DNA of 35,029 nucleotides from a virus. Taxonomy: Duplodnaviria > Heunggongvirae > Uroviricota > Caudoviricetes. The stretch is taken from the IMG/VR virus record IMGVR_UViG_2737471845_000031, positions 1 to 35,029 of that record. One strand, 5' to 3'. The translations under genes were made by a program, and so were the position numbers. Of the stretch, positions 11,967-35,029 are shown in pieces. Below the pieces are notes generated by a model. The model did no database searches, was not told the origin of the DNA, and worked only from the letters and a program-made list of their open reading frames with translations. Positions within the stretch are counted from its first letter, which is position 1, and each line of letters starts with the position of its first letter.

Positions 11967-12412
11967 CAGTATTTCTCCAGTAAGCCGTCACGACCGCCGA
12001 AAGTGGCCGGGCGGCTGCGTACACGAAACTCTCCTGGCTCAGGCATATCTTTCTGAGTGGACGGCAGCCCCAGCGTAAGCCTGTTATCACGTAACTCCTT
12101 CAGTTGCCGCAGCGCTTCTTTGTGGTCATCCTTCACCGTATCCGGGAGGTCACCTTCCGGGCGGCGGGCGTAGAGCCGGTAACGGACCAGCGTGATGGCA
12201 ATGTCCCGCAGAACGGTCGGTATCTCCGCCAGCGGCAGGATATAGCGTCCGCGCAGATGGGCATCAATCAGCTCGTCGGCATAGCGGATACAGCTCTCCA
12301 CCACACGGGTATTCACTGTCGCAGGCGAGTCGAAGTCCATCTCTTCACTGGTGAGCTCGATCAGCGTTCGTTCCGGCACCTGCTCAAGCAAATCCTCCAG
12401 GGTGCAGTACAT
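11966..12412 (-). CDS. head-tail connector/adaptor protein (Mu gp36-like)
   Basis: Likely start is ATG 12412, 1 nt after the upstream stop (TGAcATG), giving ~148 aa; the ORF-track start at 12574 would overlap the upstream gene. Confidence 0.5.
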   Translation of the reverse strand: MYCTLEDLLEQVPERTLIELTSEEMDFDSPATVNTRVVESCIRYADELIDAHLRGRYILPLAEIPTVLRDIAITLVRYRLYARRPEGDLPDTVKDDHKEALRQLKELRDNRLTLGLPSTQKDMPEPGEFRVRSRPATFGGRDGLLEKY

Positions 12413-12413
12413 G

Positions 12414-12752
12414 TCACACCCCGCGCAGGATACGAATGACGTCGCCTTCACCCCCGGCTTCATCAAGTGCAATACCACAGGATTTACCGTCGCCGGACTG
12501 CGGCACGGCTCTGGCCTGAGCATCTGACTGAACAGCCACACCACGGCTGACCGCAGCACCGGCCTCAACAGCAATAATGCCCAGAACGCTCACCGGCGTG
12601 CTGTCGCCGGTAACAGCATCCACTTCGGCAACCCCGAGCGCTGCGGCACCGGCTTTACAGGGGGTATTATCTGCCCCGACAAAACGCTGCTGTGCCAGTT
12701 CTGCCCCTGCCGTTACGGTTGTAATCAGAATGACCTGCTGAGTGGTTCCCAT
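12414..12752 (-). CDS. small Ala/Gly-rich head-associated protein
   Basis: 112-aa ORF with a strong AAGGAGG RBS directly downstream of the major capsid gene; composition typical of small capsid-associated proteins. Function not established. Confidence 0.45.
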   Translation of the reverse strand: MGTTQQVILITTVTAGAELAQQRFVGADNTPCKAGAAALGVAEVDAVTGDSTPVSVLGIIAVEAGAAVSRGVAVQSDAQARAVPQSGDGKSCGIALDEAGGEGDVIRILRGV

Positions 12753-24525: not shown

Positions 24526-25290
24526 ATGAAAGAACAATCTTTACCCATCGTCCCCTGGATTGGGGGAAAACGTCGTCTGGCCAAACACATTCTGCCTCAG
24601 TTCCCACTCCATACCTGCTATGTGGAGCCATTCTGCGGCGCAGCAGCACTTTATTTTCTCAAGACTCCCAGCAAGATCGAAGTCATTAACGATATCAACG
24701 GTGAACTGGTAAATCTGTATCGGGTAGTAAAGCATCATCTGGAAGAATTTGTCCGCCAATTCAAATGGGCGCTGGTTAGCCGGCAGATCTACAAATGGCT
24801 GCAGATCACCCCGGAAGAAACACTGACGGATATCCAGCGTGCGGCACGGTTCTACTACCTCCAGAAGCAGGCGTTTGGGGGCAAGGTGGCAGAGCACAGC
24901 TTCGGCACCTCCACCACCTCCCCGCCACGCTTCAACCTGCTACGGATTGAAGAAGAACTGTCAGCGGCACACCTGCGGCTTTCCAGAACGGTGATAGAAC
25001 ACATGGACTGGCACCAGTGCATTAAGCGTTATGACCGTCCGCACACGCTGTTCTACTGTGATCCGCCCTATCTGGGGACGGAAGGCTATGGTGTGGATTT
25101 TCCTGAAGAGAACTACACACTACTCGCAGAACTGGCACGGTGCATCAGAGGAAAGATGATTATCTCGGTGAATGACATTCCGCAGATGCGTCGGGTGTTC
25201 ACTGAACTGAACATACAGACGGTGAATATCAACTACAGTCTGGCGGGGAAACCCACGCCACGCCGTGAACTGGTAATCTGCAACTTCTGA
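24526..25290 (+). CDS. dam: DNA N6-adenine methyltransferase (Dam family)
   Basis: 254 aa from ATG 24526; N-terminus LPIVPWIGGKRRL, FCGAAAL SAM-binding-type motif and catalytic DPPY, as in Dam-family N6-adenine methyltransferases. No adjacent restriction endonuclease gene. Confidence 0.85.
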   Translation: MKEQSLPIVPWIGGKRRLAKHILPQFPLHTCYVEPFCGAAALYFLKTPSKIEVINDINGELVNLYRVVKHHLEEFVRQFKWALVSRQIYKWLQITPEETLTDIQRAARFYYLQKQAFGGKVAEHSFGTSTTSPPRFNLLRIEEELSAAHLRLSRTVIEHMDWHQCIKRYDRPHTLFYCDPPYLGTEGYGVDFPEENYTLLAELARCIRGKMIISVNDIPQMRRVFTELNIQTVNINYSLAGKPTPRRELVICNF

Positions 25291-25319
25291 ACAAAACCGG
25301 AAAGCACAATGCTTTCCGG
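25291..25319 (-). terminator. intrinsic terminator between convergent dam and repressor genes
   Basis: Perfect 10-bp stem CCGGAAAGCA / TGCTTTCCGG with 3-nt loop, followed on the minus strand by TTTTGT; sits right after the dam stop. Confidence 0.55.
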
Positions 25320-25405
25320 TAAACCAAACAACTTCCACTATGTCACTGGCGATGTTTTCTGAAAGCATCCAGATCAACCACGCGCCCTTTGTGTCCAGGT
25401 CAAAA

Positions 25406-25744
25406 TCAGCCTGCGAGTTTGCTTGGTTTGGGTTGAATGAAGACTTTGCCGACCTCAAGAATTGCCCTCCGTTGTTCGGGGCTCATTTCGTCGAATGCAT
25501 CCATTAACTCTTTCTTTTCTTGTGACACATAAGGTGCAACAACAGGCTGACTCCGCACCCCAGTAACTACATACAAAATATCTACACCGATTTCTGATAG
25601 TGCAGATAACTGCACTGCAGTAGGAGAAGTGCGATCTTTTTCCCAATCAATGAAAGTTCTCTTTGCCACACCTATAGCATCAGCCAACCCTTGCTGTGTA
25701 AGAGATAGACGCTCTCTTTCTTCTTTAATACGTAACCCGATCAT
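25406..25744 (-). CDS. XRE-family HTH lysogeny repressor
   Basis: Likely 113 aa from ATG 25744; HTH region LSLTQQGLADAIGVAKRTFIDWEKDRTSP. Divergent from the early operon, as for Mu c/ner. The ORF-track start 25897 would overlap the early gene by 53 nt. Confidence 0.75.
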   Translation of the reverse strand: MIGLRIKEERERLSLTQQGLADAIGVAKRTFIDWEKDRTSPTAVQLSALSEIGVDILYVVTGVRSQPVVAPYVSQEKKELMDAFDEMSPEQRRAILEVGKVFIQPKPSKLAG

Positions 25745-25768
25745 GTGAGTTTTTCTGCACTCTTTAAG

Positions 25769-25797
25769 TTGACTGGTGAGATAATCTGCACCATAAT
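25769..25797 (+). promoter_or_regulatory. early promoter (sigma70-like) with candidate operator repeats
   Basis: TTGACT (25769-25774), 17-nt spacer, CATAAT (25792-25797), ~47 nt upstream of the first early gene. TCTGCAC occurs twice (25754, 25785) and ATAATCT twice. Confidence 0.55.
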
Positions 25798-25844
25798 CTA
25801 TCACACATAAGGCAAACATCATTGCATCAACAAAGGAGACAACG

Positions 25845-26033
25845 ATGACTGCAGAACAAGTCAAAGCTCTCTTCCGCCAGCGCGGGATCACTTTCACCCG
25901 CTGGGCAGAAGAAAACGGCTACAACCGCAATGAGGTATACCGCGTTCTCAATGGGCAGACCAAAGCCCGTTACGGTAAATCCCATGAAATCGCCGTGAAG
26001 TTGGGGCTGAAATCAACAGCTCAGGCAGCCTGA
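25845..26033 (+). CDS. Cro/Ner-like small DNA-binding regulator
   Basis: 62-aa ORF, AAGGAG RBS 6 nt upstream, first gene of the early operon divergent from the repressor; helical basic protein. Confidence 0.55.
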   Translation: MTAEQVKALFRQRGITFTRWAEENGYNRNEVYRVLNGQTKARYGKSHEIAVKLGLKSTAQAA

Positions 26034-26085
26034 AGATTTTGAGTCTTTGTAAAAGGTTATCACATATCGCAAAAGAGGTATGCAG

Positions 26086-26394
26086 ATGAGTAAGACGAAT
26101 GTTTCAAGCTCCGGCAGTCGCATCCTCCGGGTACTCAAAGCGCTGCGCGGTCATGCCCTGAACGGTATTTCCAACGGTGAACTGGCGGCAGCACTGCACG
26201 AGTCACTGGCAAACATCAACCGGGCACTCAACACCCTCATTGAAGAAGGGTTGGCCCTGAAACTGGAAAACGGGCGTTTCGCGCCGGGCATCCAGTTACT
26301 GCAGATCGCTATGGCCCACAGTAACGAGATGGCACGTGCACAGGATCGCATTAACGAAATCAACCAACGTGTCATTTCAGGTAGTCGTTTGTAA
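26086..26394 (+). CDS. winged-helix DNA-binding protein
   Basis: ~102 aa from ATG 26086; HTH-like segment ISNGELAAALHESLANINRALNTLIEEGLA. Confidence 0.45.
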   Translation: MSKTNVSSSGSRILRVLKALRGHALNGISNGELAAALHESLANINRALNTLIEEGLALKLENGRFAPGIQLLQIAMAHSNEMARAQDRINEINQRVISGSRL

Positions 26395-26404
26395 GGAGTA
26401 ATAA

Positions 26405-27316
26405 ATGGGACGCACCAAATCACCGATTAACACTGAACTGAACGCCGAGGTACCGCTGTCGGATGATCTCAATGTCAGTCTGAACGCCATGACACAGCAT
26501 CGCATGGAGATCATGCAGCAGTTTGGCGATGGTCAGCCCTATGAGCGTGATCGCATAGTTCATGAGGCTCGGTTTTATATGGCACAGAGCGCTGAGGCCA
26601 TGCTGGAAGCAGGTAAACGACTTATTATTCTCAAAGAAAATGAACCACACGGGGACTTTGTTGGAATTGTAGAAGAACAACTTGGTCTGCATGTGCGCGC
26701 AGCACAACGAATGATGAAAGCATCTTTGAAATACCTTTCACCAAAACTAGAGCCAAAAGCGACAACGTTGTCGCTTTTAGGTAAGGCAAAATTATTTGAA
26801 CTTGTTGCTGAAGATGACGACGACCTTGCTGAACTGGCCGACGGCGGCACAGTCGCAGGACTGACGCTTGACGATGTTGATCGCATGTCAGTACGTGAAT
26901 TGCGTCAGGCCCTGCGCGAAGCGCGCGAAACCAACGCAGCACAACAGCGCGTACTCGCCGACAAAAATGAAAAAATAGACTCACTCTCCACCAGACTGGA
27001 GAAGAAATCCCGTATTCAGCCGCCTGAGCCTGATGAGGAGGTTAAGAAGCTGCGGGCGGAAGTGACAGCATTAGCGGTTGAGGCGGAATCTGCCATCGCC
27101 GTTCGACTGTCCAGCGCTTTTGAGACACTGTGCGCATATTGTGCTGAAAACATGATTGATACCCCCAGAGACTTCATGGCAGGCCTGGTCTGTCAACTGG
27201 AAAGCACAGCGCGTAGCCTGCGCTCCACATTTGACCTGCCGGACGAGCCAACAGGCGATGTCGCGCCTTCATGGCTGACTGAGCCGACGCCACAGATTAA
27301 CGGGCTGGAGGCATAA
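26405..27316 (+). CDS. hypothetical early protein with acidic and coiled-coil regions
   Basis: 303-aa ORF, AAGGAG RBS 6 nt upstream; located just before the transposase gene. Confidence 0.5.
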   Translation: MGRTKSPINTELNAEVPLSDDLNVSLNAMTQHRMEIMQQFGDGQPYERDRIVHEARFYMAQSAEAMLEAGKRLIILKENEPHGDFVGIVEEQLGLHVRAAQRMMKASLKYLSPKLEPKATTLSLLGKAKLFELVAEDDDDLAELADGGTVAGLTLDDVDRMSVRELRQALREARETNAAQQRVLADKNEKIDSLSTRLEKKSRIQPPEPDEEVKKLRAEVTALAVEAESAIAVRLSSAFETLCAYCAENMIDTPRDFMAGLVCQLESTARSLRSTFDLPDEPTGDVAPSWLTEPTPQINGLEA

Positions 27317-27319
27317 CCA

Positions 27320-29089
27320 ATGAATGCTGCCCTGACTGAACGACTGGTTTATGTCGCCCGCGCGGCACGTGACGCGGGGCATGGTAAACGCGGTGCAGTA
27401 TACGACGCTGCCTGTGCTGAACTTGGCATGTCCCGCGCCACTCTGCTGCGCAGGCTGAAGGAGGTCTCTGTGACTGATAAACGCAAAAAACGCGCCGATG
27501 CCGGGCGCAGCGCCCTGACCCGCGACGAAGCCGCGCTGATATCTGCCACACTGCGTGAGGCCACCCGCAAGAACGGTAAGCGTCTCTATTCCATCGCAGA
27601 TGCAGTGGAAACCCTGCGGGCTAACGGCTTTATCACCGCAGGCAGAACAGATGAAACCACCGGTGAGTTTTTCCCGTTGTCTGAAGATGCCATCAGCCGT
27701 GCCCTGCGTAACTATGGCCTGCACCCGGAACAACTGGATGCCCCTGCACCACATACCGAAGTGGCCAGTCTGCATCCCAATCATGTCTGGCAGATTGACG
27801 CCTCACTCTGCACGCTTTACTACCTGAGCAATGGACATAAAGGGCTGCAGGTGATGGACAGCGCGAAGTTCTACAAGAACAAGCCCGCTAACCTTGCCCG
27901 TATCGCCAGTGACCGCGTGTGGAGTTACGAGATTACCGACCATGCCAGCGGCTGGATTTACGTTGAGTATGTGACGGGGGCGGAATCCGGTGAGAACCTG
28001 TGTTCTGTGCTTATCAACGCCATGCAGGAGCGTGGCGGCGCAGACGTGCTGCACGGCGTGCCGAAAATACTCTATCTCGACCCCGGCTCGGCAAACACCG
28101 CGGGTATGACGAAAAACATGTGTCGCTCACTGGGCATCGACCTGATAGCGCACAAGCCGCATAACGCCCGCGCCACCGGACAGGTGGAAAAGGCGCGTGA
28201 CATTATCGAACGCAAGCTGGAGCCGGGTCTGAAGTTCCGGCCGGTTCACAGTCTGGAAGAACTCAACGCGCTGGCCGCGAAATGGCGCAGCCACTTTAAC
28301 GCCACGGCTGTTCACAGCCGCCACGGTAAAACCCGCACGGATATCTGGCTGAAGATTACTGCTGAGCAGCTGAAAAAAGCGCCTTCCGTTGAGGTATGCC
28401 GTGAACTGGCTGTGGCGGCACCAGAACTCCGCAAAGTCACGCCAAAACTTCGTGTCTCGTTCCGGGGCACTGAATTTGACGTATCAACGGTACCGGGCGT
28501 ACTGGTCGGTGAAAAACTGATGATTACCCGTAACCCGTGGCGCAGCGATGTGGCACAGGTGGTTCTGACCGGTGAGGACGGCCACGAGACGTTCTTCCTG
28601 GTCGAAGAGGTCAGAAAGAACGAGTTTGGCTTTGCTGAAGGCGCGGCGGTATTTGGCGAAAGTTACAAAGCCCTGCCGGAAACACCGGCACAGACGGCGG
28701 CAAAAGAAACCGAAGCGCTGGTCACCGGTACAGACAACGCCGCAGATGCAGCTGCCGCACGCAAGGCGAAGGCGCTGCCGTTCGGCGGGCGGCTTGACCC
28801 GTATAAACATATTGATGACGCCACACTTCCGGCCTATATGCCGAAGCGAGGTCAGGCCTCTGACGTACGCGGACCGCGCACTGAACAGCGTCCCATGACT
28901 CATGTGGAGGCCGCGAAAGCCCTGCGCGGGAAGTTCAGCGCCAACGGCCTTACCTGGACGCCGGAACATTACCGCCAGTTAACGGCACAGTACCCGGACG
29001 GCGTACCGGAAGCTGCACTGGATGAAGTCATGGCCACGCTGACCACGCCGGCCCGCAGCAGCGTTATCAGCATTGTTAACGGCAACTAA
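27320..29089 (+). CDS. phage DDE transposase (rve-type catalytic core)
   Basis: 589-aa ORF with candidate catalytic D (HVWQIDASL), D (LYLDPGSAN) and E (ATGQVEKA), the last pair ~36 residues apart (D,D-35-E); N-terminus unlike MuA. Confidence 0.85.
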   Translation: MNAALTERLVYVARAARDAGHGKRGAVYDAACAELGMSRATLLRRLKEVSVTDKRKKRADAGRSALTRDEAALISATLREATRKNGKRLYSIADAVETLRANGFITAGRTDETTGEFFPLSEDAISRALRNYGLHPEQLDAPAPHTEVASLHPNHVWQIDASLCTLYYLSNGHKGLQVMDSAKFYKNKPANLARIASDRVWSYEITDHASGWIYVEYVTGAESGENLCSVLINAMQERGGADVLHGVPKILYLDPGSANTAGMTKNMCRSLGIDLIAHKPHNARATGQVEKARDIIERKLEPGLKFRPVHSLEELNALAAKWRSHFNATAVHSRHGKTRTDIWLKITAEQLKKAPSVEVCRELAVAAPELRKVTPKLRVSFRGTEFDVSTVPGVLVGEKLMITRNPWRSDVAQVVLTGEDGHETFFLVEEVRKNEFGFAEGAAVFGESYKALPETPAQTAAKETEALVTGTDNAADAAAARKAKALPFGGRLDPYKHIDDATLPAYMPKRGQASDVRGPRTEQRPMTHVEAAKALRGKFSANGLTWTPEHYRQLTAQYPDGVPEAALDEVMATLTTPARSSVISIVNGN

Positions 29090-29100
29090 GGAGGGAAACA

Positions 29101-30266
29101 TGCTGGTACTGAAGCAGCAACTGAAAGAGGCCCGTATTCCACAGGCGGTGGTGGCGAGAGCTGTCGATGTTTCTGAGGCCACGCTGGCCCAGATTGTGAA
29201 TCATAACGCGTGGCCCCGCACCAGCCCCGGAGAAGTGCGCCGGCGTCTTGCGTCCTGGCTGGAAAGTCAGGGGATTGATACAGCGAAGAGTTTTGATGCT
29301 GTACAGGGCGCGGCCACGCCCCGTACAGCGGGTACCACAGATAAAACGAGCCTCAGTGAGGAAGAGAATATGTTACTCAAAAAACAGGTGTTATTTCCAG
29401 CAACCAAAAAAGCGTTTGGTCTTTTCCGTGACCCGTTCGCCGACGAAGCCATGCAGGGTTCTGATGATGTGTTCACCACCCCGGACATTCGCTACGTGCG
29501 TGAGGCGCTGTACCAGACAGCCCGTCATGGCGGGTTTATGGCTGTCATCGGTGAGTCCGGTGCGGGTAAATCCACGCTGCGCCGTGACCTGACTGAACGT
29601 ATCAACCGCGAGAATGCGCCGGTAATTATTATCGAGCCATACGTCATCGCCATGGAAGACAACGATGTGAAAGGGAAAACCCTGAAGGCAGCAGCGATTG
29701 CCGAAGCCATTATCAGTACCATCGCACCACTGGAAAGCATCAGACGCAGTCAGGACGCCCGCTTTCGCCAGCTGCATCGCGTCCTGAAAGACAGCCGCCA
29801 GGCGGGGTTCAGCCACGTTCTGGTGATTGAGGAAGCCCACAGTCTGCCCGTTCCGACACTGAAACACCTCAAACGCTTTTTTGAGCTGGAGTCCGGTTTC
29901 AAAAAACTGCTGTCCATCGTGCTGATTGGCCAGCCGGAACTGGCGACAAAACTGTCTGAACGCAATATGGAAGTCCGTGAAGTCGTTCAGCGCTGTGAGG
30001 TGGTCGAACTTCTGCCTCTCGACAATAACCTTGAAGAGTTTCTGACGTTCAAACTGCAACGGGCCGGTAAACAACTGACGGACATTATGGACGCCGGCGC
30101 AGTGGATGCCATACGTGCCCGCCTGAGCAATCCGGGAAGTCATCGTAAAAACAGGGTCAGCCTGCTGTATCCGCTGGCCGTCAGTAACCTGGTGATAGCC
30201 GCCATGAATCTGGCCGCTGAAATCGGGGTTCCACAGGTCAACGCTGACGTTGTCAAAGGGGTTTAA
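29101..30266 (+). CDS. transposition ATPase (AAA+ target-DNA activator, MuB/TnpB-like role)
   Basis: ~388 aa from ATG 29101 (GGAGGG RBS); N-terminal HTH-like region, Walker A GESGAGKST, Walker B HVLVIEEAH; directly downstream of the transposase. Confidence 0.8.
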
Positions 30267-30268
30267 TA

Positions 30269-30538
30269 ATGAAATCCATCACAGGTATCAACCAGCAAAT
30301 CAGCAAAGTGCAGTCAGCCATTATGGCGCTTATGGCAACGAACACGGATGTACAAAGCATCACCATCAGGGGCAATAAACCTGTCATCCGCGTTTCCCGG
30401 AGTGCGCATTGCATGCGCATGCTTGAACAGGGGAAAGCCAGTTATCTGTATACCGGTCATGACCACAGGGGACATTTCCGTCAGGGCGTTTTCGAACTGC
30501 ACGGCTGTCGCGTCGTGTGGCCGGAATCTTTGTGGTAA
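30269..30538 (+). CDS. hypothetical protein
   Basis: 89-aa ORF with AAGGGG RBS, between the ATPase and gam. Confidence 0.4.
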   Translation: MKSITGINQQISKVQSAIMALMATNTDVQSITIRGNKPVIRVSRSAHCMRMLEQGKASYLYTGHDHRGHFRQGVFELHGCRVVWPESLW

Positions 30539-30565
30539 TCAGCACAACCGGAGAAATCATAAAAT

Positions 30566-31096
30566 ATGGCAAAAAGTACAAAAGGGGCAAAACGTATCAA
30601 GTCCGCAGCGGCACTCTGGGTACCGGGGACACGCGAAGAGGTCATTGAGGGCATCAGACTGCTCGGTGACGCACAACGTGAACTGGTCAGGGCTGAAACA
30701 GAAATGAATGACGCCATTGGCGATATCACCGCACGTTATGCCCCGCTCACCGAGAGCCTGAAAAAACGCATGTCAGAACTGCAGTCCGGTATCCAGACAT
30801 GGTGTGAGGCACACCGTGATGAACTGACCGGCAACGGGAAGGTGAAGTTCGCTAACCTCACCACCGGCGAGGTGCAATGGCGAAACCGTCCGCCATCAGT
30901 CAGTATCCGTGGAGCGGATAATGTTATTGAACTACTGAGACGTCTGGGGCTTGAGCGCTTTATTCGTGTAAAAGAGGAAATAAATAAAGATGCCATTCTG
31001 AATGAAAAAGAGGCCGTGAAAAATATTCCCGGCATTACCATAAAAAGTGATATTGAGGATTTTTCAATAATTCCTTTTGAGCAGGATGTGCAGTAA
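30566..31096 (+). CDS. gam: host-nuclease inhibitor Gam (Mu Gam family)
   Basis: 176-aa ORF closely resembling Mu Gam along its length (KRIKSAA..., PPSVSIRG..., GLERFIR..., IEDFSIIPFEQ). Confidence 0.85.
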   Translation: MAKSTKGAKRIKSAAALWVPGTREEVIEGIRLLGDAQRELVRAETEMNDAIGDITARYAPLTESLKKRMSELQSGIQTWCEAHRDELTGNGKVKFANLTTGEVQWRNRPPSVSIRGADNVIELLRRLGLERFIRVKEEINKDAILNEKEAVKNIPGITIKSDIEDFSIIPFEQDVQ

Positions 31097-31193
31097 ACAC
31101 ACCACGTTAATTATTTAATAAAAACATTTTCTTTTTTATTCCGGCGTCAGCGCCGTGGGCTTCTGCACGCCGGAAACAGAGGAGAATTAAATT

Positions 31194-31388
31194 ATGATAT
31201 TTAAATGTATTCAGTGCGAGAGGGATATAACAGCCCTGCGTTTTCACAGCGCCATCGCCGTGATGTCCGGTAAATACCACGTACCTGCAGTACGCGTCAC
31301 CCTGGTCTGTCCGTACTGCAGTCAGCATTTTTCGGCAGATGTGCCCGTTATGGAATTCTCCCGCCCTGACAGGGAGGAAGCGCAATGA
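31194..31388 (+). CDS. small zinc-ribbon protein
   Basis: 64-aa ORF with GAGGAG RBS and two Cys pairs (CIQC ... CPYC). Confidence 0.4.
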   Translation: MIFKCIQCERDITALRFHSAIAVMSGKYHVPAVRVTLVCPYCSQHFSADVPVMEFSRPDREEAQ

Positions 31389-31657
31389 TTACCCCACAGG
31401 AAGCACATCAGCGCACCCGCGCCCTTGTTGAACGGTATCTCAACGAGTGTGAATGCCGTGACCTCACCGATATCATGTGCGCCCTGACGGCGTTAATCAG
31501 CATGGCCACGCAGGCCATTGTGGCGACTAACGGAAAGGAGGCCGCCCTGCAGATACTAGTGAACACACTCACCCACGCGGCAGAGCACGAGGTGCCGTAC
31601 CGGATGGAAATCACTGCAGAAGGCGACCTGCACATCATTGTTGACCGGAAGCACTGA
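31385..31657 (+). CDS. hypothetical protein
   Basis: 90-aa ORF translationally coupled to the upstream gene. Confidence 0.4.
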   Translation: MITPQEAHQRTRALVERYLNECECRDLTDIMCALTALISMATQAIVATNGKEAALQILVNTLTHAAEHEVPYRMEITAEGDLHIIVDRKH

Positions 31658-31666
31658 GGGCGCGGC

Positions 31667-31963
31667 ATGACACGGAACACCATACTCACCCGCACCGCCC
31701 TCTACCGTCTGGCCCTGCAGCGTTTCGGGCCGGACGCACAGGCCCTGAAACTGACAGAAGAGGCCGCTGAACTGGCGGCCAGTGCTGCCCGCAATCTGAA
31801 CGGACAGGGCAGCGAAAGCGACCTCGCGGCAGAGCTGGCAGACGTGGAAATCATGACAGAGCAATTGCGCCTTCAGGGGATGGACCGGCTGATTGACTTC
31901 CACAAACAGAAAAAACTGGAACGTCTGGCTGCACGACTGGGCGTGATTTACACGAACGAGTAA
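31667..31963 (+). CDS. MazG-like nucleotide pyrophosphohydrolase domain protein
   Basis: 98-aa all-helical ORF with MazG-type pattern LKLTEEAAEL ... ELADVEIMTEQL ... K..LERL. Confidence 0.5.
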   Translation: MTRNTILTRTALYRLALQRFGPDAQALKLTEEAAELAASAARNLNGQGSESDLAAELADVEIMTEQLRLQGMDRLIDFHKQKKLERLAARLGVIYTNE

Positions 31964-31977
31964 CCGGGAGGCATTCA

Positions 31978-32193
31978 ATGGCTGACATACTCAGGGAAAT
32001 CACCGCATGGATACTGATTCTTACTGGCCTGGCGACATGCCTCAGTGCGGGGGCAGCCCTGGCTGCCCTGCTGATGCACATAACAACACAGTGGTTATGG
32101 GAAAAGCTTAAAGCAGCATACAGCCTGAAAGAGCTGTCCGACGCTGTCCGGGCATGGAAACGGCAGAAAAATACCGGAGATACAGAACAATGA
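31978..32193 (+). CDS. small membrane protein
   Basis: 71-aa ORF with one TM segment (AWILILTGLATCLSAGAALAALL). Confidence 0.35.
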   Translation: MADILREITAWILILTGLATCLSAGAALAALLMHITTQWLWEKLKAAYSLKELSDAVRAWKRQKNTGDTEQ

Positions 32194-32873
32194 CAGACCA
32201 GAATAAACACATTGAGAAACTGAAAAAGTTGCTGGCGCTGGCCGCATCCGGCAACCCGCACGAGGCCGCTCTGGCACTGCGCCGAGCCCGTAAACTGATG
32301 GATGTTCACGGCATCACACATTCCGACATTGCTATGAGTGATATTGATGAAACCATCAGTCATTACTGGCCGACAGGCAGTCTCCGTCCACCGCGCTACA
32401 TGCTGGGCCTGATGAACATCATCCGCGAGGCATTTGGTGTTAACTCCATCATTCACCCCGGCACGCATCCGTCTGTGGGGTTCTACGGTAACCGGGAACG
32501 AGCGGCACTGGCTGCGTACACCTGGGAAGTGCTGGTCCGCCAGCTGAAAAAGGCGCGTCAGCAGTATATCAGCGCACAGAACAAAAGAATAAAAAACGCC
32601 ACCCGTACCAGCCGTGGAGACCAGTTTGCTGAAGGCTGGGTACTGGCCGTTATCAGTAAAATACAGTCCTTTGCCCTGACCGATGATGAGCGTGAACTGA
32701 TGCAACAGTGGCTGGAACATAAATACCCGCAAACGCAAACCACCAGGGCGCGTCAACCGGGAAGAAGCCGCAATGGCGACGCCTCGCGCTATGCGGGGTT
32801 TCGTGAAGGGCAGAACGTCAGACTGCACCGCCCGGTCAGTGGGCAGGAACAACAGAAACTGGAGGCCAGATGA
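32190..32873 (+). CDS. conserved phage protein (DUF2786-like N-terminal motif)
   Basis: ~227 aa from ATG 32190 (GGAGA RBS); N-terminal IEKLKKLLALAASGNPHEAALALRRARKLM motif typical of this prophage family. Confidence 0.5.
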   Translation: MTDQNKHIEKLKKLLALAASGNPHEAALALRRARKLMDVHGITHSDIAMSDIDETISHYWPTGSLRPPRYMLGLMNIIREAFGVNSIIHPGTHPSVGFYGNRERAALAAYTWEVLVRQLKKARQQYISAQNKRIKNATRTSRGDQFAEGWVLAVISKIQSFALTDDERELMQQWLEHKYPQTQTTRARQPGRSRNGDASRYAGFREGQNVRLHRPVSGQEQQKLEAR

Positions 32874-33100
32874 TTACGCTATCAGGTAACAGCCGGAAAT
32901 TAAAAGCCTGCCGAATATCTGCCAGATACCTTTTTGCCCGCGCCTTTTTTAAGAACGTCAGGCCGGGGATCACAATTGGTGTTATTGCCGGACGCGAACA
33001 GGTTGAAAAATACATGTCAGGTGCATGGTGGAATAACGACCCTGTCATTGCTGCCCGTAATATTCATATCAGTTGGGGGGATATTCAGAATGACTGCTGA
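32870..33100 (+). CDS. hypothetical protein
   Basis: 76-aa ORF coupled to the upstream gene; weak support. Confidence 0.3.
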   Translation: MITLSGNSRKLKACRISARYLFARAFFKNVRPGITIGVIAGREQVEKYMSGAWWNNDPVIAARNIHISWGDIQNDC

Positions 33101-33305
33101 ATCTGTTGTATGTGCCCTGTTCTGGTATTGTTTTGTCGGTTGGTGTACTGCTGAACTGCACCGCCGTTCAGGGTTTTATTCACGTTACAGTGGTGCCGGC
33201 TACTGGATTAGCTGGTCGGTGATGTTCCTGTGCTGGCCTGTGGCGCTTCCTTTATATGTCGATTATATCGGTGGCGCAGGTAAAAGGAGCAACGATGATG
33301 ACTAA
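33090..33305 (+). CDS. small membrane protein
   Basis: ~71 aa from ATG 33090; two hydrophobic segments. Confidence 0.35.
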   Translation: MTAESVVCALFWYCFVGWCTAELHRRSGFYSRYSGAGYWISWSVMFLCWPVALPLYVDYIGGAGKRSNDDD

Positions 33306-33747
33306 ACAACGTCTTATCCAGCTCATTCATATTGCCCGTAATGAACTGGGTATGGATGAAGACACCTACCGCCAGATGTTACAGGGGCTGACCGGTAAAG
33401 CCTCAACCAAAGGAATGGATACCACACAACTAAACTGCGTGCTGGAATCCATGAAAAGGAAAGGCTTTCGCGTTAAGCCTGCCGGAAAAGCCAGCTCCGG
33501 TTTACCGCTGGATAACCATCCGCAGTCCAGGAAAATCCGTGCGCTATGGCTTGAAATGGCTGCTGCCGGCATTGTTCGTGACCGTTCAGAAAATGCATTA
33601 GCGCGGTGGATCAAGCGGGAAACGGGCATCAGCGCCCTGCGCTGGCTCAATACTGAACAGGCAAGCAGTGTTATTGAGAAACTGAAGAAGTGGCAGCACA
33701 GAGCTGCGGGAGTAAAACATGAGCGACCTGAATCAGTTTCGAAGTAA
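33295..33747 (+). CDS. gemA: GemA-like regulatory protein (Mu gp16 family)
   Basis: ~150 aa from ATG 33295 (AAGGAG RBS); N-terminus KQRLIQLIHIARNELGMDEDTYRQML typical of GemA/gp16 proteins; immediately upstream of mor. Confidence 0.7.
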   Translation: MMTKQRLIQLIHIARNELGMDEDTYRQMLQGLTGKASTKGMDTTQLNCVLESMKRKGFRVKPAGKASSGLPLDNHPQSRKIRALWLEMAAAGIVRDRSENALARWIKRETGISALRWLNTEQASSVIEKLKKWQHRAAGVKHERPESVSK

Positions 33748-34117
33748 AGGGCCGGAACTCCTGGTGGAGCTGGCACAGCATACCTCTGAGACCGTTCGCG
33801 AGATTATTGATATTGAGCCCGCAATTGCCGACCAGATTGGTCAGGCCGTCGCGAACCGAATGATGCAGGTCTGGGGCGGGCAAAACGTTTATTTCCCGAT
33901 GGGCATGGTATGGAAGGTCAGTCAGCGCGACCGGGAAATCTTCAGGGAGTTTAACGGACGCAACCACCACGAACTGGCCCGCAAGTTTGGTGTTTCGCTT
34001 CAGTGGGTCTACAGCGTGGTTAAGCGGGTCAGAAAAGAAGAACTGGATCGGATGCAGGGCAGGTTGTTTGATGAAGATCTGCCAGAGGAGACGAAAGACG
34101 TTAACAAATCCAGATAA
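33719..34117 (+). CDS. mor: Mor/C-family transcriptional activator
   Basis: 132-aa ORF with the Mor/C C-terminal HTH region FREFNGRNHHELARKFGVSLQWVYSVVKR; last gene of the early operon; the only Mor/C homolog in the window. Confidence 0.8.
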   Translation: MSDLNQFRSKGPELLVELAQHTSETVREIIDIEPAIADQIGQAVANRMMQVWGGQNVYFPMGMVWKVSQRDREIFREFNGRNHHELARKFGVSLQWVYSVVKRVRKEELDRMQGRLFDEDLPEETKDVNKSR

Positions 34118-34160
34118 TTCCTGCTTGTTAAAGTCCTTTCAAAAATCTCCTTATTGTATA

Positions 34161-34193
34161 AAAGCACGGTAGACCCCTTACCGTGCTTTTTTT
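34161..34193 (+). terminator. rho-independent terminator of the early operon
   Basis: 11-bp perfect stem AAAGCACGGTA / TACCGTGCTTT with 7-nt loop, followed by a T-run, 44 nt after the mor stop. Confidence 0.75.
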
Positions 34194-34231
34194 ATGCTCT
34201 CTCTTTAGTATTCAGGATGCAGGGAGAAAAT

Positions 34232-34864
34232 ATGTTTGACGTTTCGTTGTTAAATCTGCCATGGGCAACACTGGTGACCCTGACCAGTGGCTATATTGGG
34301 TATTTTATTGCGAATGTGGGACTGAAGGATCACCACAAGCCCATTGAGGTGACTTTTTCTTCGCTGATTTTTGGCCTGACAGCAATGATGGCTTACCAGG
34401 CTGTTATGTGGGCAGGTCTGAATGCCTGGCTGGCAACACCACCAGCACTTCTGTGTGCCGTTACATGCGGTGCGTGGTGGCGCAGGTACGGTCGCAAATG
34501 GATGTACAGATTACTGTGGAATAATGATATTTCATGGTCTGACGATACCAGCTCAGCATGGCAGGCAATGTTTGATCAAACAGGCTTCAGCGTTACCGAG
34601 GTCAGAGTGATTCTTCGCGATGGTTCCGGTATGATGTCACGGCTGCCAGGGAACTTTGAAGAGTGGCCTAACGGTCCGTTTACCCTGGGGAATAAAGGCG
34701 ATATGGTTCTTTACGTCACGCACAGCAGCCCTTCAGGCAGTAACGAATGGGAAGAGTATAAAGGCGTGGTTGATAAGTACTGGGGAGCTCTGGCAACCTA
34801 TATTCCAGCAGATCAGATTGCCAGAGTGGAGATCAGGCGCGTTCGTGCAACGAACGATGAATGA
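34232..34864 (+). CDS. hypothetical membrane protein with soluble C-terminal domain
   Basis: ~210 aa from ATG 34232 (GGGAGA RBS); the ORF-track start 34154 overlaps the terminator. Three predicted N-terminal TM segments, then a hydrophilic domain. Phage or host origin unclear. Confidence 0.5.
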   Translation: MFDVSLLNLPWATLVTLTSGYIGYFIANVGLKDHHKPIEVTFSSLIFGLTAMMAYQAVMWAGLNAWLATPPALLCAVTCGAWWRRYGRKWMYRLLWNNDISWSDDTSSAWQAMFDQTGFSVTEVRVILRDGSGMMSRLPGNFEEWPNGPFTLGNKGDMVLYVTHSSPSGSNEWEEYKGVVDKYWGALATYIPADQIARVEIRRVRATNDE

Positions 34865-35029
34865 TGTTTATTTTTTCCCTGGGGCAGGGGCTGCCGGCAT
34901 AGTGGTTTTATTGGCAGAGGAAGACGATTCTCCTTTTCTACCGGAATCGCGCTCGAACGTCACGATGTGCTTGCTTTTGGGCTTTTCTGAGTAATCCAGG
35001 CTATCATGCTTATTGTTTTGAGTAGTCAT

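Follow-up and report, generated by a model that had tools for sequence, protein, structure and literature searches.

Phage Mu possesses several operator copies (O1-O3), one of which overlaps the promoter Pe, and two promoters, Pe and Pc. Its c/ner switch is one point of reference for the locus described here, since in both cases a transposable phage carries a leftward repressor gene that diverges from a rightward ner-A-B operon (Mu is cited in PMC3820752 and PMC9936078). A second is provided by the Pseudomonas transposable phages B3 and Fc02, for which PMC9936078 describes divergent, overlapping promoters (pE and pC2) and a distal promoter (pC1). According to the same account, the pE operon begins with ner, a thermosensitive mutant of the B3-like phage Fc02 shows that the gene at the position corresponding to the repressor gene considered below is the immunity repressor, and the lysogenic transcript of Fc02 starts ~1.7 kb upstream and runs antisense to ner (PMC9936078).

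Lambdoid switches of the CI/Cro type (P22 C2, 434) combine a repressor of the same HTH fold class as the one found here, a palindromic operator over the lytic promoter, and a divergent cro-like first gene. Operators within genes are also familiar: lac O2 in lacZ, gal OI in galE and TP901-1 OD in mor are auxiliary intragenic looping operators, found 100-400 bp from the primary operator. Finally, C.Kpn2I, a small XRE-type HTH regulator, has its sole palindromic site inside its own ORF, where a roadblock has been demonstrated (PMC6237814). A search of the literature on the operator or switch of BcepMu or Bcepmuvirus returned nothing specific and no experimental work, and an experimental description of a BcepMu-type immunity switch in E. 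coli was likewise not found.

The window (the whole stretch of 35,029 nucleotides that was analysed) is an E. coli Bcepmuvirus-like (BcepMu-type, Mu-like) transposable prophage. A 2.1 kb segment spanning the switch is 100% identical to chromosomal prophage DNA of E. coli M-17 and other strains; related DNA is carried by 595-635 of 5426 complete E. coli genomes (~1 in 9), ST131 strain EC958 among them; and the nearest isolated phage, at 84% identity over 81% of the query, is Escherichia phage PhiKM of the genus Bcepmuvirus. The rightward early operon comprises, in order, a ner-like gene, an IclR-type wHTH gene, a DUF3102 gene, a DDE transposase gene (A; assigned through its rve domain and PHROG 310) and a gene for a MuB-like, or B-like, ATPase (PHROG 296, transposition protein). 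Judged by gene content and similarity, membership of the Bcepmuvirus type is indicated by the DDE transposase together with the MuB-like ATPase, by the divergent late genes, and by PhiKM as the nearest classified phage. The late genes (head, tail, lysis) occupy 1-23487, all on the minus strand, and the early genes 25845-35029, all on the plus strand; the two groups diverge from the dam/repressor region, which is the layout of BcepMu and not that of Mu.

An earlier note, drawn from the letters of this DNA, had proposed a divergent control region for the repressor and the early operon, with a near-consensus sigma-70 promoter and two repeated 7-mers as candidate operator half-sites. The proposed gene boundaries are confirmed, as is the divergent control region, which is that of a temperate transposable phage: the intergenic interval 25745-25844 is flanked by two start codons, that of the repressor at 25744 on the minus strand and that of the ner-like gene at 25845. 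The elements of the locus, in order along the window, are as follows.

25406..25744, minus strand: immunity repressor gene c, 112 aa, with an N-terminal XRE/HTH_3 domain.
25600..25615, unstranded: O3, GTGCAGATAACTGCAC, a perfect palindrome (GTGCAG-ATAA-CTGCAC) in repressor codons 44-49 (VQLSAL).
25745..25760, plus strand: O2, GTGAGTTTTTCTGCAC, adjoining the repressor start codon, 31 bp from O1.
25769..25774, plus strand: -35 hexamer TTGACT of the early promoter Pe, from a consensus scan.
25776..25791, plus strand: O1, GTGAGATAATCTGCAC, at positions 2-17 of the 17-bp Pe spacer.
25792..25797, plus strand: -10 hexamer CATAAT of Pe, from a consensus scan, with a 17-nt spacer to the -35 hexamer.
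25793..25844, plus strand: immunity-independent DNA common to heteroimmune prophages, comprising the -10, the leader and a Shine-Dalgarno sequence, AAGGAG (25833-25838).
25795..25803, minus strand: a possible, weak promoter for the repressor (Pc), in the form of an extended -10 (TGaTAGATT) placed back-to-back over the Pe -10.
25845..26033, plus strand: first early gene, whose Ner-like HTH product of 62 aa belongs to the BcepMu gp16 family (PHROG 925, E = 4e-33).

The interval is quite probably the immunity switch of this phage, with Pe driving the early operon and the XRE-type repressor reading the 16-bp operators O1-O3. What sequence comparison establishes is the identity of the genes, the presence of the promoter and of three copies of the operator, and the co-variation of the operators with the repressor allele. 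Both functionally and in its layout the switch is of the standard temperate-phage kind, and joins the gene order of Mu and B3 to a lambdoid-type HTH repressor and palindromic operators. It departs from Mu in that the repressor is of the XRE/HTH_3 type, the operators are of a 16-bp palindrome type, and the genome order is BcepMu-like; in further contrast with Mu, no IHF site was identified at the switch. B3 and Fc02 are tied to it by a homologous repressor (37% identity to that of B3) and by a ner-like gene of 54-71% identity, and the overlap of the candidate Pc with the Pe -10 resembles that of pE and pC2 in B3, as described in PMC9936078. In contrast to Fc02, no such distal repressor promoter was found by the scans made here, and operators are defined here, whereas the part of PMC9936078 that was consulted defines none.

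With the lambdoid switches the locus shares each of the elements listed above; unlike them, it has a single operator within the promoter spacer, with the other copies dispersed, instead of three in tandem, and its repressor is without an S24 domain, though such a domain is present in sister repressors that share its HTH. In lac, gal and TP901-1 the intragenic site lies in a regulated gene, whereas O3 lies in the codons of the regulator's own DNA-binding domain. Like C.Kpn2I (PMC6237814), the locus has an intragenic palindrome next to divergent, overlapping promoters; unlike C.Kpn2I, it belongs to a phage switch and not to a restriction-modification system, and the C.Kpn2I site is near the 5' end, whereas O3 is one of three sites and is placed at codons 44-49. 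Thus, the arrangement is not new in kind, since intragenic auxiliary operators and self-gene roadblocks are both already known, and the one feature of the switch that is mildly out of the ordinary is the intragenic operator.

The assignment of the repressor draws on several comparisons. The protein matches Pfam HTH_3 at 31.7 bits (cut-off 23; residues 6-51) with no other domain, matches PHROG repressor families as well as proteins annotated ‘immunity repressor’ and ‘CI-like repressor’, and shares 37% identity with its counterpart in phage B3; among solved structures the N-terminal domain of P22 C2 comes closest (E = 2e-4), and this class of HTH forms dimers on palindromes of about the size of O1-O3. 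The HTH_3 match, the divergent gene and the palindromic operator over the lytic promoter would together class it as a phage repressor of the XRE, or Cro/C1-type, HTH group. Pfam found no Peptidase_S24 domain in the 112-aa protein, and Phage_CI_repr scored 18.1 bits against a cut-off of 22; by this measure the repressor does not appear to be of the cleavable type typified by lambda CI and LexA. Since the repressor is without an S24 domain, LexA-like autocleavage cannot be the induction route in the immunity type shared by M-17 and the window. A winged helix of the kind found in the Mu repressor and the MuA N terminus gave no Pfam match in the protein, the families matched being of the XRE-type HTH only. 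A single-sequence AlphaFold2 model of the repressor reached a pLDDT of 49 and was too poor for use.

The early promoter described in the earlier note (TTGACT, 17 nt, CATAAT) is present, and its position is conserved in all relatives. Pe matches the sigma-70 consensus at 10 of 12 positions and is the sole promoter-like site returned by the consensus scan on either strand of 25300-26500; shuffled sequences contain 1.2 +/- 1.3 promoter-like matches per 1.2 kb, so that a single match, taken alone, is not beyond chance. A -35-like hexamer (TTGATA, TTTACA, TTGCTC or TTGACA) stands at the same position in all immunity types, as does a conserved -10, NATAAT. The hexamers of Pe, a spacer within the range of 16-18 nt and the conservation of its position across five immunity types argue for a sigma-70 promoter, with the early transcript predicted to start at ~25804-25806. 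An alternative -10 (GATAAT, 25780-25785) was rejected because it is not conserved in relatives. The protein encoded immediately downstream falls below the gathering score of Pfam HTH_35 (17.9 bits against a cut-off of 25) and has no PDB relative at E <= 1; its homologues are annotated ‘Ner-like antirepressor’ and ‘BcepMu gp16 family’, and its position and size agree with a Ner-like role.

The 7-mer TCTGCAC is the end of a longer 16-mer direct repeat, GTGAGTTTTTCTGCAC / GTGAGATAATCTGCAC, identical at 13 of 16 positions with a spacing of 31 bp, and a 16-mer pair of equal quality arose in 0.4% of shuffles. Both copies, O2 and O1, take the 16-bp form GTGAG-N4-TCTGCAC, in which TCTGCAC is the good half. 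Relative to the ideal operator form, GTGCAG-N4-CTGCAC, the left half (GTGAG) of O1 and O2 is consistently imperfect, and the affinity of these two sites and their occupancy by a symmetric dimer are uncertain for that reason. In relatives with repressors 57-94% identical to that of the window (gathered from genomes and viral contigs, plus a search that used the palindrome itself), GTGAG, TCTGCAC and the -35 are constant, while the linker from O2 to the -35 varies, as do the centres of O1 (ATAA, GAAA, GTAA, ATTT, TTTT, GTTT) and O2 (TTTT, TATT, TCTT).

The pattern GTG-N7-CTGCAC has four exact matches in 35 kb, three of them within 192 bp at the switch. First-order Markov simulations yielded 0.55 sites per window and no case among 300 with even two sites within 200 bp; the pattern was chosen after the data had been seen, which makes these simulation P values optimistic, and they count as support and not as proof. 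The fourth match (GTGACATGTACTGCAC, 12402-12417, minus strand), in the late-gene region, was set aside as a chance occurrence, ~0.5 being expected per window. As a separate observation, the copies in Candidatus Symbiopectobacterium (L010 and L011; insect symbionts) have O2 and O3 intact and O1, the -35 and the -10 degraded (TTGGCT ... CCGCAC CATGAT), a state consistent with a decaying prophage that still keeps its repressor gene.

The earlier proposal of an immunity switch within 100 bp stands as regards the switch and fails as regards its confinement, since the best operator copy, O3, lies 130 bp inside the repressor gene, centred 145 bp from O2 and 176 bp from O1. Its codons specify VQLSAL, the helix that follows the recognition helix in the alignment with P22 C2. 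Among 17 distinct sequences (49-100% amino acid identity) O3 is invariant, synonymous sites included: V44, Q45, L46, S47 and A48 are each encoded by a single codon, while the neighbouring A43, L49 and S50 vary synonymously. Highly degenerate codons (four- and six-fold) are fixed at 4 of 4 positions in O3 versus 0 of 19 other invariant residues (Fisher's exact test, ~1e-4), and in most lineages O3 is, of 284 offsets within the gene, the one most similar to the upstream region. Selection on the synonymous sites of O3 is evident in these alignments.

The association of O3 with the HTH domain extends to distant relatives. Repressors with the same HTH and other C-termini (S24 in L053, L054 and L114; other in L129 and L118) still keep O3, and these relatives, whose first early genes are different and unrelated, carry GTGCAG-N4-CTGCAC, perfect or nearly so, in a 17-bp early-promoter spacer 172-176 bp from O3. 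Moreover, the O3 16-mer is itself the promoter-spacer sequence of L053, L054 and L125; the early promoter reads TTGACT-A-GTGCAGTTATCTGCAC-TATCGT in L053 and TTGATT-A-GTGCAGTTATCTGCAC-TATATT in L125. The S24-like domain of L053, L054 and L114 carries a GDSM motif, and the fusion of the same HTH and operators to S24 in these viral contigs indicates that a DNA-reading module has been recombined with different induction modules. L053 had no match in the phage collection that was searched.

A second clade appears to have arrived at the same design. Repressors of the EC958 type have an operator of their own, TGCTCA-N6-TGAGCA, in the early-promoter spacer, and a copy with perfect arms inside their own repressor gene (L005, 1255-1272 and 1483-1500, 228 bp apart; also L155 and L161-L165). 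The intragenic copy falls at different codons (LLTG[M/V]S), its arms are invariant and its N6 centre varies among relatives of 64-100% identity; on this comparison the EC958-type clade is a second, independent case of an intragenic operator. The presence of such a site in two independent repressor clades offers a directly testable case of a regulator that binds its own gene. In the EC958-type prophage the repressor start codon is also seen to form a further half-site (ATG-AGC-A).

O3 may be inferred to act as a high-affinity anchor. The fuller reading is that the highest-affinity operator resides in the repressor's own HTH codons 44-49 and is kept through exchanges of C-terminus and of host phage as a ‘reader plus site’ cassette, where it would serve as a looping anchor and/or a roadblock, with the second clade independently alike; the odds for this combination of claims are judged to be about even. 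The alternative that survives best holds that only O1, and perhaps O2, are operators, and that O3 is kept for a feature of the mRNA, as a recombination joint, or through constraint on the HTH codons. Three of the five immunity types (L004, L006 and L008) revealed no intragenic operator copy, so that the site is not obligatory for the switch design; the spacing of O1 and O3 is not constant in phase (172-176 bp); and the most distant lineage, L019, has two synonymous changes within the 16-mer, all of which favour this alternative. It does not readily explain, however, why O3 should have the very sequence of the promoter-spacer operator of L053, L054 and L125, why synonymous sites should be frozen while flanking codons vary freely, or why the unrelated EC958-type clade should show the same arrangement with its own operator; nor does any Rfam family match the region. 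It is accordingly regarded as unlikely, though it keeps a real share of the probability. Among Pseudomonas relatives without the VQLSAL motif no intragenic site was found, and none that covaried at the same codons (‘YLAAVA’).

A further question is what the repeated 7-mers of the intergenic interval represent. Both are present in the interval, as the earlier note states, TCTGCAC at 25754-25760 and 25785-25791 and ATAATCT at 25781-25787 and 25793-25799, and it had taken both as candidate half-sites. Its reading in the strict form, with both 7-mers as half-sites and the whole switch within 100 bp, draws some support from shuffles of the 100 bp, in which one repeated 7-mer appears in 20% and two in only 1.6%. 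For TCTGCAC the proposal was sound in substance, since this 7-mer is the conserved half of an operator, albeit one of 16 bp and not of 7. ATAATCT does not survive the comparison with relatives: phages with the same repressor HTH have GAAATCT, GTAATCT or ATTTTCT in place of its first copy, which belongs to the variable O1 centre, and its second copy is composed of the -10 and leader, and is common to heteroimmune phages with unrelated repressors and operators. The strict form of that reading is therefore improbable.

The heteroimmune relatives also indicate which protein the repeats belong to. In many E. coli prophages the similarity to the query sets in only at 25793 and continues rightwards (97.9% identity), which places a recombination joint at the -10. 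Across the five immunity types compared, the -10, the leader and the ner-like gene are kept in all while the repressors differ, and each type has its own palindrome of 16-18 bp at Pe spacer positions 2-17; those of the four other types are TGCTCATAATTATGAGCA, ATCCCATTTTTGGGAT, GTCTAATTTTTTAGAC and GAGAACAATAGTTCTC. A rule for the group follows, of a conserved promoter scaffold, a repressor-specific 16-18-bp palindrome in its spacer and a recombination joint at the -10, and the spacer palindrome becomes a means of predicting homoimmune prophages. For the immunity type of the window, the analysis supplies the operator sequence.

The possibility that the repeats are sites for the Ner-like early protein (a Cro analogue) and not for the repressor has to be weighed against these comparisons. 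In phage Mu, Ner binds between the divergent promoters, and the repeats here flank the Pe -35. However, M-17 and EC958 encode an identical Ner-like protein (WP_000123378.1) together with different repressors, and their spacers are wholly different (GTGAGATAATCTGCAC versus TGCTCATAATTATGAGCA). Because the palindrome co-varies with the repressor allele while the Ner-like protein is identical, the repeats belong to the repressor; the same palindrome, moreover, accompanies the same HTH despite unrelated first early genes. Assignment of the repeats to Ner is thus very improbable, and it follows from the same co-variation that any Ner-like site must lie in the shared segment 25793-25844. Within that segment, 12 of the 13 leader variants from the different immunity types have the leader core CAAACATCATTGCA (25813-25826) unchanged; this core represents a candidate Ner-like site, although constraint and recent common ancestry are inseparable there. 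A leader hairpin, GCAA-N6-TTGC, was rejected as a structural RNA, as no compensatory changes occur across the 13 leader variants, and Rfam returned no match at E <= 1 in 25200-26500.

The comparison of immunity types yields a further observation about the repressor itself. Its C-terminal ~45 aa (residues ~64-112, 25406-25555) are nearly identical across immunity types, while the N-terminal HTH domains differ; the shared tail reads SPEKKELMDAFDxMxPEQRRAILEVGK..QPKPSK (L155, L161, L164, L169). In an immunity swap, therefore, nothing but the HTH domain and the operators is replaced, and possible roles for the shared tail are dimerisation or the sensing of an inducing signal.

The existence of the intergenic region depends upon the true start of the repressor gene. 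RefSeq WP_224154089.1 gives the repressor 152 aa, with a start at 25864 and an extension that runs through the control region into the ner-like gene. The idea that no intergenic control region exists, although the frame is open in the window allele and PGAP annotates it so, is scarcely credible, since relatives of 91-94% identity have a stop in this frame six codons ahead of the ATG, others have several, and the HTH domain of the short form begins already at its residue 2. The 25744 start is conserved, and other RefSeq genomes annotate the short form; because the extension is broken by stops in relatives, the short gene and the intergenic region are real. In the annotation of PhiKM, a matching repressor CDS is missing from the correct strand of the corresponding region (L002, 3166-3557).

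With the short repressor as the reader of O1, O2 and O3, a working scheme for the switch may be proposed from the geometry of the sites. The spacer of a promoter is the classical position for strong repression, and a dimer on O1 would occupy the DNA between the two hexamers of Pe and keep RNA polymerase out. O2, three helical turns upstream on the same face, could allow cooperative binding, and O3 might promote occupancy of the two imperfect sites, O1 and O2, by protein-protein contacts over a loop of 145-176 bp. The distance from O1 to O3 ranges from 172 to 176 bp between lineages, which argues against strict helical phasing of a small loop. Transcription of the repressor gene might also meet a partial roadblock at O3, and negative autoregulation would result.

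The promoter from which that transcription would start is less clearly marked. The consensus scan found no minus-strand site in 25300-26500; the best minus-strand score in a crude PWM scan, 7.7 versus 13.4 for Pe, is that of the extended -10 at 25795-25803, which is conserved in all immunity types and is tentatively put forward as a weak candidate for Pc. O1, O2 and O3 are all downstream of this only candidate. A leaderless start was excluded, as no -10-like hexamer is present 7-12 nt upstream of the repressor ATG; no Shine-Dalgarno sequence precedes that ATG, which O2 adjoins.

Two minor observations concern adenine methylation. A gene for a D12-class adenine methylase (Dam-like) occupies 24526-25290, directly downstream of the repressor gene and convergent with it, and a GATC at 25739-25742 overlaps the repressor start codon (CCGATCATG) and is retained in most relatives.
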